From contig JBEWZL010000098.1 in the NCBI GenBank assembly GCA_045837725.1, forward strand, positions 1-64,000: DNA of 64,000 bases, in the 5' to 3' direction. Source of the DNA: Vermamoeba vermiformis (lineage: Eukaryota). The position numbers were made by a program, and so were the translations under genes. This document shows, piece after piece, positions 49,297-58,713 of this stretch. Below the pieces are notes generated by a model. It did no database searches, was not told the DNA's origin, and saw only the letters and a list, made by a program, of their open reading frames with translations. Within the stretch, counting starts at the first letter, position 1. Each line of letters begins with the position of its first letter.

Positions 49297-50749
49297 TTAG
49301 TCTTCTTTTTCCTCTTTCGAGGATCCGCCCTTTTTTATTTCGATAAGTTGCTGATCTGAGGCAGTCAATTTAACTGCCGCTTTACAAAACTTCGTCTTAC
49401 AGTCGATGCCAATAGCACTGAAGCCTAAATAATTCGCAACGGCCAAGACAGTTCCGTGGCCGCAGAACGGATCAACAATGGTAGCTTTGGCAGGCTGAGG
49501 ACAGTACTGCTTAATAAATTCTACGGCTATTAATGTCGAATGGTAACCCATGCCTCGTTTCCATACTGCTTTTCCTACCGAGTAAATTAAATTAGCTTTT
49601 TTCTAGATTTGGATGTGCCGCTTCGGAACTTACCCCGATGAGCTACGTCAGGCGATACTTTCAGAAGCTTATCATTCAAGTTCTTAGTAAAACAGAGCAA
49701 ATGGCTGTACGAAGGTCGTCCGTACGATACTTCAGGACCACCTTGCAACATTATTTTGTGCCATAATAATTTGCAGTTACTTTGTACAGCTGCTGTTTGA
49801 ATCAAAAAGCTCTTATCGACCCATTCCTATGCATATAAAATTAATACATAGGGCTTTTAGACTAGTCCACCAAAAAACTGTTAAAGTTTCACGAGGTAAT
49901 TGGTACGTGTTCCAAAGCGATAGTAAGAATTGCTTTAAAAGGTTTAAACTTACGATCACGTGCTCATTTTTGTCGGTTATTCTGCAATCAGTTTGATAAA
50001 ACAGTGCGAGTCCGTCATCGCTCAACTTCGACATGATAAGAGCTGCCGTTGACACGAACCAAGACTTCCACTATTCGATAAATATCATTAGTACGATATA
50101 TTCTAGCCATCATATGAGTATTATTGCATACCTGATCCAAGGTGAGCTTCATTTCTGAGTGATCCGGAAGTGATGTCACGACGTAATCAACACTCGTTTG
50201 CTCGTTGAGCCATCGAATAGAATCTATTATAAGGAGTTATAATACTATTTTTTAGAAGGTATTTAAGTAGGTACCCCTGCACAGGACCACACGGTTTGGA
50301 TGCATCTCGGATTTAAATGTTATTTGAGGGTCTGGCGTCTTTAATGTCGCTTGAATTGCTTTAACTGATAAGTGCTTTTGATTGGTAGTGGCGATAGTTG
50401 TCGTAGGTTGGTTTGAGTGAACAGCGTCACCCACATCTTCACTCGAGCTGTCGTCGTCTACCTGCTCAATTGTTTCCTTCTTCTCCGCCTTAAATAACCA
50501 GATATATAATACAAATGCTACATTCAACGCAATAGACTTGTAAGTAAGCGTCTGTTAAAATAACAGGGTCAAAAAAATATCTACCGGTGCAGTTACGACG
50601 TAATTTTCGTAAAATAACCACACAAAATATTGTACAATTTTTACCTCAATTTTTCCACACGACAGATCGTGGCATAAATAGCGATCGACATTGTTGGCGA
50701 AGAAAAACGCCAGATTCAGTCCAAGCAACAAATATATTTCTTTACGCAT
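49297..50749 (-). CDS. N6/N4 DNA-methyltransferase-like protein (beta order) with hydrophobic N-terminus; multi-exon
   Basis: VDYVVTSLPD (motif IV-like) precedes IVDPFCGHGTVLAVA...AIGID (motif I, SAM binding). Confidence 0.65.
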
Positions 50750-50947: not shown

Positions 50948-53900
50948 ATGGCTTCATCGATTTTTGGTGGTTTTTCTTTTGCCGTTACGGATACGTCCTC
51001 AAAGCCAACCACTGAAATAATCAAATTAATTAAGCAGTATGGAGGCAGCGCCAGCTATATGCTCAATAAGAAGGTATTAATATTAGATAATTTTATTCAA
51101 TAGTAATTAACTTTTTGCTGCACTAGACAACGCATTTGGTAACAACTGCTGAGCAAGTGGCCAATAAATCCATCAAAGTGAAAACTGCTCTTGATTATGG
51201 TGCCAAAGTGCTATCAGACAAGTTTGTCCTCGATTGTATTGCAGAGAACCAGCTGGTAGACGACTCAAAATATCTATTGACTGCTAAAGAAAGCTTTGAA
51301 CAAAAGGTAAGGCGCATCCGTTAAATTGATGTTCGTTTCTATTGATTACATAATCATATTGCAAATTTCGTGACGCTTTCACCCATTCAAATATCAGATC
51401 ATTAACTATCTTTTTTTGTGATCTACAGCCCAAAGACTTTTTCAATTATCAGAAGGAGTTCATCACCGAGGCTGAAATGTTAGCCAAACAAGAGGAGCTT
51501 AAGAAAGCTGAAGAAGAACGAAGTAAGTCTTAGTTTTCCTTATGCCGCCAAAATTACAAATCCAACCTGAATTGAACTGATCTCAACCTCTTTTCTTTCG
51601 CAAATCCCTTAACTATGCACGTTATACTCATTAATATCGTTAAATGAAAGCAAAAGTCTTTATTTTGTTGACTGGATCTGTTGATAGTCTTTACTAACAC
51701 GTTGTTTTAACAGAGAAAAAAGAAGAAATTGAACAGAAGAGATCTCAAGCCCGATTGGCTGCATTAGCAACTCCTGATCCTCATGCAATCTCATTTGGAT
51801 CTACCCACGCCCCGGTCATCACAGCCGCACCCCAACAACAAGAGGCTGTGGATCCGAACAGAGTTATTCCTAACCAACGCAAGCCACGTCCTACTGTCGT
51901 GGGTCAGTTCGAGAAGGCTAAGGTCTGGAGAACTGACGACAAGAACCAACCTGCGTTCCCTGCCGAATACGACCTCATCTACTACGATACCCTGCAGGTA
52001 CGACCTTTTTTATTGCTTGTTTTCATACTAAGCCGAGACTAATGCCATTTCACCACTTAGTGGACTGATGTGCAAAGCAATCATAACAAGTACTACTGCT
52101 TGGAATATCACATCGGCAAAATCGACGGCAAGGAGAAATACAGATTGTACACTCACTACGGCCGAACGGATGACTTGATCACGAAGGGTAACAACTCTGG
52201 TCGACGAGAGTGCCGTTATTATGACTCTAATGACAAGGCTGAGGTAAAGGATCTGCGAGATCTTGCCACGTAATGCGCGTAGTACTAACGGTCCCATGTA
52301 GAACGGTTACGCTGCTCTGATTGAAGAGAAAACTCTCACAAAGGGCTACAGACGAGTCGATCTCCTCATCAGTAACATTGGTTCTGAAAAGCTTCGTGCT
52401 TGGTCGCAACAAAGCAAGGCTGCCGCACTCAACAACAACACTAACGCTGCCGCTGCTCCCAAAGCCCCCGTTGAGAACTTGCCTCGCGTTCCTCCCTCGC
52501 AATCTATCAAGGACTTGACTCGTTACATCTATGAGGAAGCAACCAACGCTTTGACCTCAACTTTGGGTAAAATCACTATCACTGCCAACGGTATCGAGAC
52601 TCCTCTCGGTGTTCTCAATGCACCACAAATTGAGAAGGCCGAAGCCTTGTTGAAGGAGCTGTATCAACTCTTCACTTTGGGTCAATCACAAGCGTCTACA
52701 AAGGCCAAGATTGAAAAGTTGTCCAACGATTTCTACACGATGATTCCTCACAACATTGGTCGTCAACGAGACAAGATTCAACAAGCCGTCATTAACTCGA
52801 TCTACTTGATCGAAGAGAAGCAAGAGCTTTTGCAGTTAATGAAGGATATGTTGCAAGTCGCTGCAGAAAATCCTTCCGATAATGCTTCGGATCTCGACAT
52901 GAAATACTTCGCCTTGAAGGTAAATATTTATTCTTTTGTTGGTTCTTGTTACTAACCAATATCCAGTGCAAAATTGACGAGGTCAAGAAGGGAACTGGCG
53001 ACTACATCCGCATTGAGAATCAAATTCAATCCACGTGCATCAAGGGCGAGCCCATCATTGTAGATAATATCTTTGCCATTTCTCGCCCCGCTGAAAAGGC
53101 TGCTTTCAAGAGCGAGATTATGGATCAACGCCTCTTGTTCCACGGCTCTCGTATTAGCAACTACGTCGGTCTTTTGTCCCGTGGTGTCTTGATGCCTAAA
53201 GTCGTTGTCGCTATGGGCGGCAAACGAAGAGACGGTACGTGCATTGTAAACATTCTTCAAGGAAGATCGATCTAACCCTTTATTTCAGCTGGTCTTTTGG
53301 GCAACGGTATCTATTTTGGTGATACTTCATCGACTAGCGCTGCATACACTACTGCTGGTGCCAAGGGCACTCGTATGATGTTGATGTGCAAGGTCGCTCT
53401 CGGCAACGTCAAGCACTACAACAAGGTCACTTTTGGCTTGACCGAGCCACCTGCTGGTTACAACAGTGTTCACGGTGTTCGTAGCACTCCCTCGCAACCT
53501 ACCGACTTTGTTGATGACGAGTACGTTATCTTCAATACCAACCAACAACAGCAAGAGTACTTGGTCGAGTTCCGATTCCAAGGCGAGACTTTAACTCCAT
53601 TGGCCCACAAAGAGGAAGTCAGAGCTATGAACCCCGCTGCCCCTGCACCCAAGGTCAACGACGCTCTTGCCTTTATGGAGAACCTCAAGAAGAGATTCCA
53701 TGACAAGCCTTTCGTTGTTAAGGAGTTTATGGAGATTATGAGCGGCTTTAAATCTGGAATGTAAGTCTTGCTCTAAGCCTGCACCTGCGTATCGTACAAA
53801 TCTAACCCTCTCCCTTAGTATGGATACAAGTGTCGTTGTATCACGTGCCAAAGAACTGTTCGGAAGCGAACCTGATTTGATACGTGACTTCGCCAACTTC

Positions 53901-56900
53901 TTGCCTCCTGGCGTGCTCGTTGTGGATGAAGCTCCTAAGAAGTCGTTCGCCGTAACAGAAGAAGATCTGTTGGGAATGAACGAAAACAAGCCCGAATCCT
54001 CTGGAGATCGATCGAGCTTGACTACTCTTGCGACTATCTCCGAGCCAAGCGCAGAATCGAACACCATGGGCTCTTCCAAGTTGAAGGGCATTGGTCTGCG
54101 CAAGTCTTTCAAGTCTGGCCCGACCTCTACTTTGTTGTCGTCCATCAAGTTCGACTCACCCTTGCAACTTAAGCCAACAGCCAAATTGTTTGGCCTAGAG
54201 AAGAAAGAACCGCAGTCCATCGACGAAGCAGACATTGATCCTCAAGATGTTGCTAAGGCCCTTGCTGGCAAGACTGACACCAAGGCAACTTTGCTCTCCG
54301 CCAAGACCGGCTTCGTCGACTTGGAGAACATGCGCCTTCAATCTGGTGTCAACAAACGCAAGCACTCCGTGTTCAGCGAGCATCACAACAAGGCCAAGTT
54401 AAAAGAGCTCCAAGAAGAGCAAGAACACCTTGCTAAATCGCTTCAACCTCGCAAGCGTCACGAGCACCCAATGAAGATCTCGAGCGACATGATCGCACAA
54501 TCTGCCAGCACTATTTTGGGCGGATCTACTTCCTCTGTTGGTGCTCCTGGCTCGACCTTTAACAACTTGACCACTTCGTTTGGTTTCAACAAGGCTCCTG
54601 CTTGGCGCAAGACTGTCAAGATGGCAGAGTCCACTATTGGTGCTGAAAACTTGAAGATTAAGCGCCAAGAAGACAAGCTCCGTGAAGTTTTTGCGCAAGA
54701 CAAGAAGAACTACAAGACCTCCGATCCTTATGTGCACCTTATTGACATCTTCAACAAGCGCGAATCTTTCTACTACCAGCAAGAAACCAAGGATGAGCTC
54801 GCCTTGCCCAAGCTCTTCAACAAGATCCGCACCCCCAGTAGCCAAGACTACGCCATTGTCACCAAGGATGAATTCAAGAAGAACTTCAAAGAAATCTGCA
54901 ACGGCGTTTTCAAGGGTCTTGATTGGAGCAACGTTTTCGTTGCCGGTGGTGCAGTTTTGGGCTCCGTGATGAACATTGCCGACAGAAGCGGTTTTAAGGA
55001 CTCGGACATTGACATGTTCTTGTACGGTCTTACTGAAGAAGAGGCCAACGAAAAGTTGAAGCACATCTACTTCATCGTGCAGTCCAACACCAAGGCCACG
55101 TGCGAAGTGATCAGAACCAAGAACGCAGTCACGATCTTGGGTCAATACCCGTACAGACACATCCAGATTGTGTTGAGATTGTACAAGAGCCCTGCTGAGA
55201 TCTTGATGGGCTTCGATATTGACGCTTGCACTGTCGGATTTGACGGCGACAGAGTCTGGGGCTTGCCACGTGCTCAACGCGCCTTGACCAAGCGTTACAA
55301 CTTGGTTGACATGAGCCGTCGCTCTTTGACTTACGAGGCTCGTCTCTACAAGTACGCCAAGCGTGGCTTCGCTGTTGCAGTTCCTGGCTTGGACAGACAA
55401 TTTGTCCGTGCTGATCTCTACCAAAAGAAACCTCACGAGGTTAAGGGCTTAGCCAAGCTTCTTTTGTTCGAGCACGAGGCTACTGGCGATATCCCTGCCT
55501 TCATTACTTGGAAACCTAAAGCTCAACGCTTCCAAGCTTACAGCAAGGACGACTTCACTGCTAACCGAATCAACGAGTTCGAGACCATTGAGCAGTTGAA
55601 GAAGATCAAGCCCGCCGCCCCTGCTGCTCCTACCATTCCTGGCTCCGCCGTGACAGTTGTCACCGCTCCTCAAGAACCTCAACCAGAGAAGCAAGTTGGA
55701 GACAAAGACCCTGACTCAGACTACAGCACCCTTTACGTGCCTTGGGGTCCTCAATGGTACACGCACCAAATCTTGAAGCACTTGGAGTTCCGTGACAAGA
55801 GACAATTCTTTGCTACGATCCACGAACAAAAGGCCAAGCCCAAGCACATTCTCTTCAGTGGCATTGAAGGCGTTATTGCTGGCCGTGCTGCCTGGGACAA
55901 GTACAACAATGAGCAACAACCCGCAACTGGTACTACTGAACAACAGAAGAACGAGTACATCGATGCTCATGTCGAAGGTCCTTTGAAATGGCTCACCGAG
56001 AACCCTGGTAGACAACTTCTCACTGGCAGTTTCCATCCCATTGACGATGACAACTGGTACAATGAGGCCTATGGTGCCTTCAACGACCTTGAAAGCGAGT
56101 TGCTCCAAGCCGTTTGCGATGCTTGCTTCAGCGGTCGCTCTGAAATCATTTCGATCTTGCTCCGAAAGGCTCGCAAGTTAGACTTGAACAAGGTTGATCC
56201 TCACACTGGCCGCAATGCTCTGATGCACGCCTGCTCTCAAGGCCACCTTGATGCGTTCAGACAGATCATTGACAAGGACGTTGATGCTAATATTCTTGAT
56301 GTCAAGACCGGCTTCAGACCCGTTCACTTCGCCGCATTCAAAGGCAGTGCTCTCATGACTGAGACTTTGTGCCGCAAGAACATTGACGTGAACGTTAAGA
56401 CCGAGATACAAGGCTTCACTCCTTTGCATATTGCCGCATACTACGGCAATGCTGATGTCGTCCGCGTGCTTGTAGACCACACTCAAATTGATTTGGCTGT
56501 CAAGGATAACAAGGGTCGCTCTATCATGCAATTGGCTGCTATGGGTGGCAACAATCGTGTCATTGAAATCCTCCTTAAGGCCAAGGCTCCTTTGATCATT
56601 GCCGATGAAAAGGGCGTCACACCAATTGTAAGTTTTATCACTAGTCCGTATTTAATACTTATTCTTACCGCTGCTATTAACAGAAAGCTGCTGCTGAGCG
56701 TGGACACTTGCGCGTTGTTGAAATGTTGGAGCACGCTTTGAAACTCCAAGCCAACACCGACCTCAATGGCGTTCCCATCGTTGAGAACACGACACAAGTC
56801 CCCGACAAGGAAGTTGAATTGTTGCAAGTGACTTCCACGGGCAATATTCCCAAGATCGAGCAAGTGTTGGAGAAGCCGAATGTATCAAGTGCCATCGCGT

Positions 56901-58497
56901 CTCAAAAGGACAAGTTCGGTATCACTCCTCTTCACATCTGCGCTCACCGCTCTTTTGCCTCGTCCCTTGTCGAGCTCTTCAGAAAGAAAGGCGTTGTGTT
57001 GAACGCAAAGGACAAGTACGGCCAGACTGCTCTGCACTATGCCGCTCGATACGCTAGTGTTCAGACTGTTAAGGCCCTCTTGGCGATCAACGAGGAACTT
57101 GCTGAAGAGGCTAGAAACACCAACTCGTTCTTGTAAGTTTGCTATTGTACCTTCTCGACAAAATTTTTCTAACCTCTCTGTAGTGCCAAGGACGAGAAGC
57201 CACGAATCTTCGTTGAACTTGAAGCTCAAAACATGTTTGGCCAGACTCCTTTGTACGTCGCTATGTTCCAATTAGCCAAGTGCCACTCGTTCAAGGACAA
57301 CTACGATGAATTGTCTGGCTTGCCTTTGGCTCAAGAGAAGCACGATTGGGAAGAAATTGCTCAGCTGCTCAAGAAGGCTGGCGCTAGATCCCCTGGCCTG
57401 TCGTTCTACTACAACTTGACTGGTGAATTGCCCTCGCCTTACTTGTCTAACGGCAAGGTCGTTAAGCTCAACAAGGCCACTACCCCACGCGAGACTTTGC
57501 GATCCGCCTTGAACGTAAGTAATACACTATGAAGCTTAATGTGTACTTACCATGTAACAGCTTGGCCTCTACGTGCCCGAGGTCGAAGAAGAGTTCGTGC
57601 CTTCGTACTTGAAGGGCAAGACTCAACCCAAGAAGCCAGTCTTCGAAGAGGAAGAGGATGATTTTGTTGCCATGCAACCTCCTCGCAAGAAGAAGTTCGA
57701 GTGGAGCGAGCCTGTCAGTGCCAGCCTGCCCAGATCACCTGTGCACGACAACACGCCAACCTTCAACTTCCCCATTCCTCAAGACAACCCGTTCACTGTT
57801 GGTGCTGTCGAGAAGAAGGCCACGGATGTAAGTACTCGTATTAAGATATATCAAGCAGTCCTAATTGTGCAACAGGCCAAGAGATCACCCATGAAGCACA
57901 GTCCATTCAAAAACGCAGAGCGAGAGCCTTCCTCGCCCGTTATGGCACGACGAGTATTGGACAATCAACCTGGCTTCTCGTTCGGTGAAACAACTCACTT
58001 TGCTTCAACTCCTTCCGAACCATTGCCCGCGTTCTCTCTTGCTCCTCAGCCAGGCCAACAAGCCGGTTCTTCTTTGTTCGTAAGCGACCCCGTGCCTGTT
58101 GGCGAGAAGCCTGCTTCAACCCAAGGCTTGGCTGCTTTGAAGGCTCGTGTCCTTTGTAAGTTCTTCCATCCTCTTGAGGTATACTAGCACGATACTAATC
58201 TTTCACAGCTCTCATCAAGCCAAATGATAAGCCAAAGACAGCTGCTGGCAAGGTGCTTTTAGGACTCAGTAAGCTCCATAAGAAGAGCTCTTTGTCCGCC
58301 GATGAAAAGTCACGCTTGAAGACCTTGGCCTTGCAAGACGACAAGAAGGTTGTTAGTGCCTTCCAAGCCTTTGAAGCTGATAAAGACGAGAATGAATTGC
58401 TCGACACTCTCAAGAGTAAGTTTTTAATTTGATGAATTCGAGTTACGGACACGAGACTAACTACTTTTCATTTGTAGTGATCATCACTCGTGCTTAA
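50948..58497 (+). CDS. Giant multidomain protein: BRCT, WGR, PARP regulatory and catalytic domains, PAH, nucleotidyltransferase-like domain, ankyrin repeats
   Basis: BRCT (GGSASYML..TTHLV); WGR-like (NKYYCLE...THYGR); LSNDFYTMIPH; LLFHGS, GIYF, DDEYVIF; PAH (ALAFMENLKKRF...FANFLP); NVFVAGGAV...SDIDMFLYGL; TPLHIAA repeats; exons joined by short GT-AG introns. Confidence 0.85.
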
Positions 58498-58576: not shown

Positions 58577-58604
58577 GAGAAGGGATGACAGCGTTGCGCG
58601 TCTA

Positions 58605-58713
58605 GGTGTGCTACCACTACACCACGTCGGCAGGCTGCTGTGACAAATGCAAAGCAAACCTTTGAATATTCCGACGGCAGGAATCGAACCTACGTCACCG
58701 GTGTGAAAGACCG
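58605..58713 (-). tRNA. Circularly permuted tRNA-Glu(TTC): 3' half 58713-58669, 37-nt spacer, 5' half 58631-58606/58605
   Basis: The halves join into a 71-nt cloverleaf: acceptor CCGACG/CGTCGG, D stem GTGT/GCAC, anticodon CCGGT-CTTTCAC-ACCGG, T arm GTAGG-TTCGATT-CCTGC. Confidence 0.8.

Follow-up and report, generated by a model that had tools for sequence, protein, structure and literature searches.

Does a single protein of the amoeba Vermamoeba vermiformis combine an enzyme that transfers ADP-ribose with one that transfers nucleotides, and to what would the two activities be applied? The question is raised by a gene on the plus strand of contig JBEWZL010000098.1 (assembly GCA_045837725.1), at 50948..58497 of the 64,000 nucleotides analysed here (positions 1 to 64,000, hereafter the window). 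An earlier note, made from the letters alone, had read within these limits one spliced frame for a PARP4-like poly(ADP-ribose) polymerase (PARP) with BRCT, WGR, regulatory and catalytic domains, continued by a Sin3-type PAH module, a pol-beta-type nucleotidyltransferase (NTase) domain and ankyrin repeats. Gene model, Pfam and a transcript of a close relative all bear out this order. Two enzyme domains with conserved active-site residues thus lie on one polypeptide, along with end-sensing (BRCT and WGR) and protein-binding (PAH and ankyrin) modules. As an explanation of the protein as a whole, we favour, with slightly better than even confidence, a two-enzyme protein that would couple ADP-ribosylation to nucleotidylation at nucleic-acid ends.

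Between 50.9 and 58.5 kb, open stretches follow one another in the stop-to-stop frames of the plus strand. Exons joined from the DNA reading give a gene of 15 exons, running from an ATG at 50948 to a TAA that ends at 58497, exactly the limits proposed before; the joined coding sequence (6588 nt) comprises 2195 codons and a single, terminal stop, and encodes a protein of 2195 aa. All 14 introns are GT..AG (46-191 nt), most of them with CTAAC-like branch sites. Exon 9 alone accounts for 936 codons, and Pfam is blank over approximately 450 residues in its middle. One of the homologues found is P0271, a complete open reading frame (ORF) of 2180 aa from a transcript assembly, whose source is labelled Vermamoeba vermiformis. 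Over its full length, residues 1 to 2195, the window protein is colinear with it and 93.9% identical. The two sequences differ by ten indels, each of 1-5 residues; these leave the exon junctions free except for a one-codon difference at junction 10, and the junction of intron 8, where the PARP half ends, is gapless.

The PAH module spans that very intron. With E 4e-5 to 1e-3, residues 121-155 of exon 8 resemble the opening helices of the PAH in Pst1 and SIN3; exon 9 begins with a match to positions 18-45 of PF02671 (E 9e-6); and on P0271 the module is found at residues 724-767, covering profile positions 2-45 of 45 with 44.5 bits. Both exon halves, as well as P0271, thus confirm the Sin3-type PAH. 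Spliced RNA was sought in raw RNA-seq reads from three runs that carry this species name, and in contigs from a fourth RNA run. The raw-read runs cover 29-30 of 30 bins of the gene and the contigs 20 of 30. Joints in these data reproduce 12 of the 14 introns (1, 2, 3, 4, 6, 7, 8, 9, 10, 11, 13 and 14), those of introns 9 and 10 with a few replaced letters; at intron 12 loose ends read across, and intron 5 is absent from the joints listed. The joint from 53760 to 53819, which removes intron 8, is present in two reads (X22), four reads (X23) and one contig (X14). The intron itself had been predicted, at 53761-53819; its 3' end proves to lie one base earlier, at 53818. Transcripts divided near 53764/53820 would have spoken for two genes, but spliced reads, a contig and a transcript ORF cross the junction. 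With P0271 colinear end to end, a two-gene reading is refuted: the PAH straddling intron 8, the RNA joints and the transcript ORF of a close relative agree on one gene. The related-strain reads also carry an in-frame 3-nt deletion at 57645 (66 of 85, 47 of 59 and 151 of 197 reads), another at 57191, a 6-nt deletion past the stop codon (58528) and many third-position differences. These deletions and differences look like strain or species divergence, not editing. Three low-count RNA joints between "opposite strands" were taken as artefacts.

Pfam was run exon by exon on the window protein, and domains split across exons were re-scored on P0271, where BRCT, WGR, PARP_reg, PARP, PAH and ankyrin all score above their cut-offs. 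BRCT reaches 39.6 bits on P0271 (residues 3-80; cut-off 21.3). WGR stays under its cut-off on the window exons because it is split over three of them (exon 5 alone gives 17.8 bits against a cut-off of 22), and exceeds it on P0271 (residues 224-305, 27.4 bits). The catalytic ADP-ribosyltransferase (ART) domain occupies residues ~500-680 of 2195 and matches PF00644 on both of its exons (E 1.1e-10 and 7.4e-16). Its best solved relatives are the human PARP4 chains 8swy, 8sx1 and 11jf. The N-terminal catalytic half matches PARP4 with E 6.4e-13 (PARP2, 8.9e-8) and the C-terminal half with E 7.1e-26 (PARP1, 2.3e-6); PARP1-3 matches, at about 1e-6 to 1e-7, are far behind. The domain is thus PARP4-like, as had been claimed, and its H-Y-E triad is intact, all three residues (H554 at 53141-53143, Y593 at 53312-53314, E662 at 53519-53521) aligning to their human PARP4 counterparts. 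For the C-terminal exon, no PARP4 match was found at E<=10 among solved structures. VIT and vWA domains were detected neither on any exon (Pfam, E<=0.01) nor on P0271 (E<=0.001); in PARP4, an MVP-binding domain also follows these two. Judged by sequence, the window gene is a PARP4-like member of the PARP superfamily belonging to Clade 5B; it lacks the VIT and vWA pair by which the animal-type Clade 5A is recognised.

Identification of the middle domain had been based on two motifs, AGGAV and DSDIDMF, expected at about 54930-55030; both lie inside this interval, at 54942-54956 and 54999-55019. A search of solved structures by sequence gave only chance matches to antibodies and binding proteins. 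A first structural model (456 residues, 28-row alignment, predicted local distance difference test (pLDDT) 77.4) was confident over its first 260 residues, and a core model of 260 residues, built from a 40-row alignment, reached pLDDT 95.1 and a predicted template modelling score of 0.91. When this core was aligned with VIA-align against 48,161 chains, the best matches were the class II NTases 3wfo_A (Z 11.4, root-mean-square deviation 4.1, 181 residues aligned) and 3aql_A (Z 10.4), followed within class II by 9kma_A (9.6), 3h37_A (9.5), 4wby_A (9.4) and 1miv_A (8.4), by TENT5B (8.3) and by two more CCA-enzyme entries (7.9 and 7.2). Z then drops to 5.3 or less for all other NTase classes, and nearly all 50 rows are NTase-fold proteins by description. 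With Foldseek, TENT5 and class II enzymes account for all 12 PDB matches at E<=1e-3, and the first model agrees. The predicted structure thus identifies the middle domain as a pol-beta-type NTase fold, nearest to class II CCA-adding enzymes, bacterial poly(A) polymerase and TENT5. This upholds the proposed closeness to CCA-adding enzymes and poly(A) polymerases; the lack of an NTase fold would have told against the two-enzyme reading.

Conservation of the putative active site was counted over 40 PARP-fused sequences (residues in domain numbering). G78 is present in all 40, G79 in 34 and D98 in 38; position 100 is always acidic (D in 34, E in 6), and D168, D170, R186, Y207 and E208 are each found in 40/40. 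Sequence and model together place the pol-beta superfamily signature, hG[GS]...DxD, on its canonical fold, and residue conservation makes it likely that the domain is active. Six of the 40 share a set of substitutions (second glycine to D or E, F167R, R202L, S204H and Y214W). Six PARP-fused sequences (P0283, P0289, P0291, P0299, P0101 and P0305) have an NTase domain that does not bear the PF26128 tag discussed below. We assumed that these, which form one clade in the tree, are the six substituted sequences; the subgroup may represent a diverged or inactivated branch.

The domain has a large family. Among 1.84 billion representatives searched with HMMER, 5225 are related at E<=1e-3, of which 2954 reach E<=1e-10. 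In a language-model Atlas, the nearest clusters are 92-94% PF26128, "Gad2", and PF26128.2 is precomputed on nearly all Gad2 homologues listed, on P0271 and on most eukaryotic homologues. In PHROGs the domain matches weakly to phrog_4400 and phrog_1614 "nucleotidyltransferase", the same two that Gad2 of phage SPbetaL7 matches. Direct comparison gives E 4.6e-3 for the eukaryotic-domain profile against the single Gad2 sequence and, with hhalign, E 5.7e-5 against a 24-homologue Gad2 profile (probability 66%, 148 columns), which is modest taken alone; the alignment keeps AGG, DxD, FD.D.C and R..KY in register. A tblastn search of 50,697 phage records with the middle domain matched nothing. Since it is the precomputed Pfam tags that settle membership, the window domain is placed in PF26128 by proxy, through the tags on P0271 and its homologues and through the Atlas clusters. 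According to the preprint describing it, Gad2 is an anti-Gabija protein of phages, 400 aa long, that neutralises a protein complex and for which AlphaFold predicts an NTase (bioRxiv 10.1101/2023.05.01.538930). Gabija being a bacterial system, the anti-Gabija function as such cannot apply in an amoeba. Among viral models, Foldseek found 105 matches at E<=1e-3, led by giant-virus ankyrin, BTB and vWA proteins. The best of them include proteins of Fadolivirus (E 1.6e-34), Yasminevirus and Clandestinovirus, giant viruses isolated on Vermamoeba. Several viral members have the NTase domain joined to vWA, the domain that comes after the catalytic part in animal PARP4.

The author of the earlier note did not know of any protein with this architecture. 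It is in fact conserved in Amoebozoa, Dictyostelium Q54HY5 included, and its NTase is catalogued as PF26128. Thus it is public and automatically tagged in databases, hence not new there, and the window gene adds one member. PF00644 and PF26128 occur together in 25 of the 120 homologues listed (P0271 and 24 others), six more having PARP without the PF26128 tag; in 20 of 24 long homologues scanned, a PARP catalytic domain stands ahead of the NTase domain. The named sources are amoebozoan: Arcella, Pyxidicula, Physarum, Pelomyxa, Flabellula, Clydonella and five dictyostelid genera. P0285 is Q54HY5 itself; it shows BRCT, WGR, PARP_reg, PARP, PF26128 and ankyrin domains and groups among PARP-fused NTases in the tree. 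Clade 5B was defined by Q54HY5 and Q55GU8, with BRCT, a PARP4-like catalytic domain and a long C-terminal extension free of VIT and vWA, an extension left undescribed in 2010 in the accessible text of that work (Citarelli et al., PMC2964712). Since P0285 has the same domain set, the window gene is an orthologue of that clade. Our literature search found no paper naming an NTase in Clade 5B-type PARPs; the supplements of Gad2 and fungal-PARP preprints, which may list eukaryotic or giant-virus members, lay outside it. A 2026 fungal PARP preprint mentions no Gad2, nucleotidyltransferase or PAH, and Perina 2014 no nucleotidyltransferase, PNK or PAH.

Other fusions were seen among the long homologues. 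Six of the 24 (P0029, P0041, P0046, P0052, P0056 and P0095) have PNK3P and/or AAA_33 at the C-terminus, replacing the ankyrins; three are from diplonemids, one is from Apiculatamorpha and two come from ENA records. The two domains together resemble, by sequence, a polynucleotide kinase/phosphatase (PNKP). One long homologue starts with Alba, and one has ubiquitin between the two enzymes. A FastTree phylogeny of 242 NTase cores (midpoint root; 5 of 247 rows dropped for core coverage <80%) gathers 43 PARP-bearing sequences in one 81-tip subtree (support 0.62), interleaved with 38 PARP-free ones that are mostly 300-900 aa long with the NTase domain N-terminal. The 161 tips outside this smallest clade holding all PARP fusions have a median length of 1780 aa and the domain near residue 22. 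We do not claim a single fusion event, because the 38 PARP-free sequences could be stand-alone genes or cut models.

How might the two enzymes work together? For PARP1-3 it is established that binding to a nucleic-acid break is transmitted through WGR and the autoinhibitory helical domain to free the catalytic domain; the same coupling may be envisaged here. BRCT and WGR would direct the protein to nucleic-acid ends, broken or free, and end binding would release the PARP domain through WGR and the helical domain. The freed PARP domain would then ADP-ribosylate itself or nearby targets, and the NTase would add nucleotides to a 3' end at the same site, RNA being the likelier substrate than DNA. 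PAH and ankyrins would recruit partners, and both catalytic centres are presumed active. Action on a 3' end is suggested by the fold and by the PNKP and Alba fusions. Likewise, the diplonemid relatives in which PNKP takes the place of ankyrins lend some support to the end repair or antiviral signalling that had been proposed for this protein. As the Dictyostelium orthologue is labelled near vault particles, vault-linked RNA would be a candidate substrate: Q54HY5 and Q55GU8 are enriched by MVPA-TurboID in Dictyostelium, together with other PARPs (bioRxiv 10.64898/2025.12.12.693869). A vault connection is possible, this proximity labelling being the one hint of binding to major vault protein.

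Several points weigh against coupled action on nucleic-acid ends. No activity, substrate or phenotype is on record for any family member. The fold leaves the substrate open, being shared, at lower Z, by NTases that modify antibiotics or proteins or make cyclic nucleotides. The structural match covers head and neck (model residues 7-259), with no tRNA-binding body or tail domain; at E<=0.01, Pfam does not match the domain to the head family of CCA-adding enzymes and poly(A) polymerases, and on sequence grounds the domain would not be placed in that class II family. For the third catalytic carboxylate, expected on a later strand at the metal site, the invariant D168 and D170 are no more than candidates. 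On the PARP side, human PARP4 is labelled a mono-ADP-ribosyltransferase in solved entries despite its H-Y-E triad. The mechanism of Gad2 was still termed unelucidated in February 2026 (PMC12904381), and the TurboID study has four PARPs passing its filter and two more falling short (bioRxiv 10.64898/2025.12.12.693869), so the vault link is not specific. Finally, the raw RNA reads are mostly 90-95% identical to the window DNA and thus derive from a diverged strain; they show the splicing of an orthologue, from which that in the window genome is inferred.

The most serious alternative is that the NTase produces a nucleotide signal or modifies proteins or small molecules, acting on targets recruited by the ankyrins and PAH, the PARP half being an independent second modifier. 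Among its structural neighbours at lower scores (Z 2.9-4.6) are NTases for aminoglycosides and lincosamides, MenT toxins and CD-NTases; family members very often occur together with repeats that bind proteins (ankyrin, BTB and vWA in giant viruses, ankyrin in fungi); and the target of phage Gad2 is a protein complex. However, template-independent RNA 3'-end transferases are the closest by a clear margin (Z 7.2-11.4 versus 5.3 or less) and relatives are fused to PNKP and Alba, and we regard this alternative as unlikely, though worth keeping in view. It seems improbable that the NTase-like domain is a catalytically dead scaffold, which would make the protein, in functional terms, just a PARP carrying a large adaptor tail. 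No member has a demonstrated activity, and the six-member PARP-fused subgroup is altered at the second glycine and several other conserved positions; yet the window protein and most of the 40 keep GG, DxD, D168, D170, R186, Y207 and E208, a pattern hard to explain without catalysis or ligand binding. It is very improbable that a PARP gene and an adjacent NTase-ankyrin gene were misjoined over 53761-53818. Unspliced, intron 8 does close the frame with a TAA at 53762-53764, and many NTase-family members have no PARP half. Against this, the PAH is complete only when the exons flanking the intron are joined, the intron is bridged by spliced reads and by one contig, no break interrupts the transcript ORF from Vermamoeba, and PARP and PF26128 occur on one protein in 25 of the 120 homologues listed, from many amoebozoans.

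The proposal of a PARP and an NTase acting on the same nucleic-acid end can be extended, tentatively and with considerable doubt, to the family. Gad2-family proteins would be nucleic-acid-end NTases, and Amoebozoa would have coupled an ancestral vault-type PARP to one of them, so that one and the same protein chain could label a break or a free RNA end with ADP-ribose and also tail it, perhaps on RNA associated with vaults or in giant-virus infection. If true, this would explain how phage Gad2 works, by hiding or changing the DNA ends sensed by Gabija, and would give a mechanism for an obscure PARP4 lineage. PARP4 and the vault particle have gone decades without a clear function. Outside animals, the PARP4 lineage is joined to a Gad2-type transferase with conserved catalytic residues, and in diplonemids the pair is joined to PNKP as well; fusions of this kind suggest that nucleic-acid ends are the substrate in common. 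Dictyostelium and Vermamoeba are tractable systems in which a nucleic-acid-end substrate could be tested.

Coordinates of the features (Table 1) include three segments beyond the enzymes. Ankyrin repeats, as had been claimed, are recognised through Ank_2, and the start of exon 11 aligns weakly to DARPin ankyrin repeats among solved structures. The last ~70 residues of the protein align, by eye, in most of 22 amoebozoan orthologues, P0019 being a clear exception. Against solved structures, the C-terminal exons gave at E<=10 only a chance match and weak ankyrin matches. An EF-hand-like identity of the C-terminal module was considered from Atlas clusters (scores 0.75-0.78, best 0.78) and kept as a lead only, not adopted.

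Table 1. Features of the two-enzyme gene, in window positions; NTase motif residues are in domain numbering.
Feature	Position	Strand	Remarks
Exons 1-5	50948-51073, 51127-51306, 51429-51522, 51714-51997, 52061-52243	+	gene model
Exons 6-10	52302-52919, 52967-53234, 53289-53760, 53819-56627, 56684-57132	+	gene model
Exons 11-15	57184-57514, 57561-57827, 57876-58155, 58209-58415, 58478-58497	+	gene model
Intron 8	53761-53818	+	58 nt, GT..AG, phase 2; separates PARP half from the rest
BRCT	50948..51306	+	exons 1-2; weak partial Pfam matches on both exons
WGR	51989..52355 (approximate, mapped from P0271)	+	split over exons 4-6
PARP regulatory (helical) domain	52500..52865	+	PF02877, E 1.8e-18
PARP catalytic (ART) domain	53000..53578	+	PF00644 on both exons; interrupted by intron 7 (53235-53288)
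Sin3-type PAH	53660..53903	+	cut by intron 8
Linker	53904..54713	+	~270 aa, no Pfam match
Gad2-family (PF26128) pol-beta-type NTase domain, predicted	54714..56081	+	456 aa; confident core 54714-55493 (protein residues ~1041-1300)
NTase motifs	GG 54945-54950; DxD (D98, D100) 55005-55013; D168 and D170 55215-55223 (D1138, D1140, D1208 and D1210 of the full-length protein)	+	
Ankyrin repeat array	56088..57270 (approximate)	+	exons 9-11; Ank_2 E 4e-25 and 1.6e-12
Tail	57271..58208	+	no recognised family; no Pfam match, exons 11-13
C-terminal helical module	58209..58494	+	conserved; no family recognised

On the minus strand downstream of the gene, at 58600-58712, lies what looks, by eye, like a permuted tRNA-Glu(UUC)-like gene. 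Its order is anticodon arm, T arm and 3' acceptor strand (~58712-58666), then 5' acceptor strand and D arm (~58641-58600), with a G-A mismatch as first acceptor pair; it is followed by a T-run at ~58576-58569, some 72 bp from the stop of the PARP gene. ARAGORN and Rfam (E<=0.1) reported no tRNA beside the PARP gene, as expected for a permuted gene. Upstream, an open frame at 49297-49602 on the minus strand contains DPFCGHGT, which we take to resemble the SAM-binding motif of DNA/RNA methyltransferases.

Among known systems, human PARP4 (vault PARP) has the closest solved catalytic domain, and shares with the window protein an N-terminal BRCT, the helical regulatory domain and H-Y-E. However, the window protein also has a WGR, and where PARP4 goes on with VIT and vWA, as given in PMC2964712, it has PAH, NTase and ankyrins instead. 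The NTase shares its head and following helices with class II CCA-adding enzymes, bacterial poly(A) polymerase and TENT5/FAM46 (Z 7.2-11.4), whereas identity to these is 8-15%. With Gad2 of Bacillus phage SPbetaL7 it has in common the Pfam family and the alignment of AGG, DxD, FD.D.C and the R..KY..+G[FY] helix, but Gad2 is a 400-aa stand-alone protein and direct similarity is weak. Fungal and giant-virus "ankyrin repeat proteins" have the same combination of NTase and ankyrins, with PF26128 at the N-terminus, but not the PARP half. The closest counterparts are the Clade 5B proteins Q54HY5 and Q55GU8, which likewise have BRCT before a mid-protein PARP4-like catalytic domain and a long extension free of VIT and vWA. 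Unlike Q54HY5, whose NTase domain is ~42% identical, the window protein has a PAH (PF02671 is found only on P0271 among the matches listed) and is ~400 residues longer.

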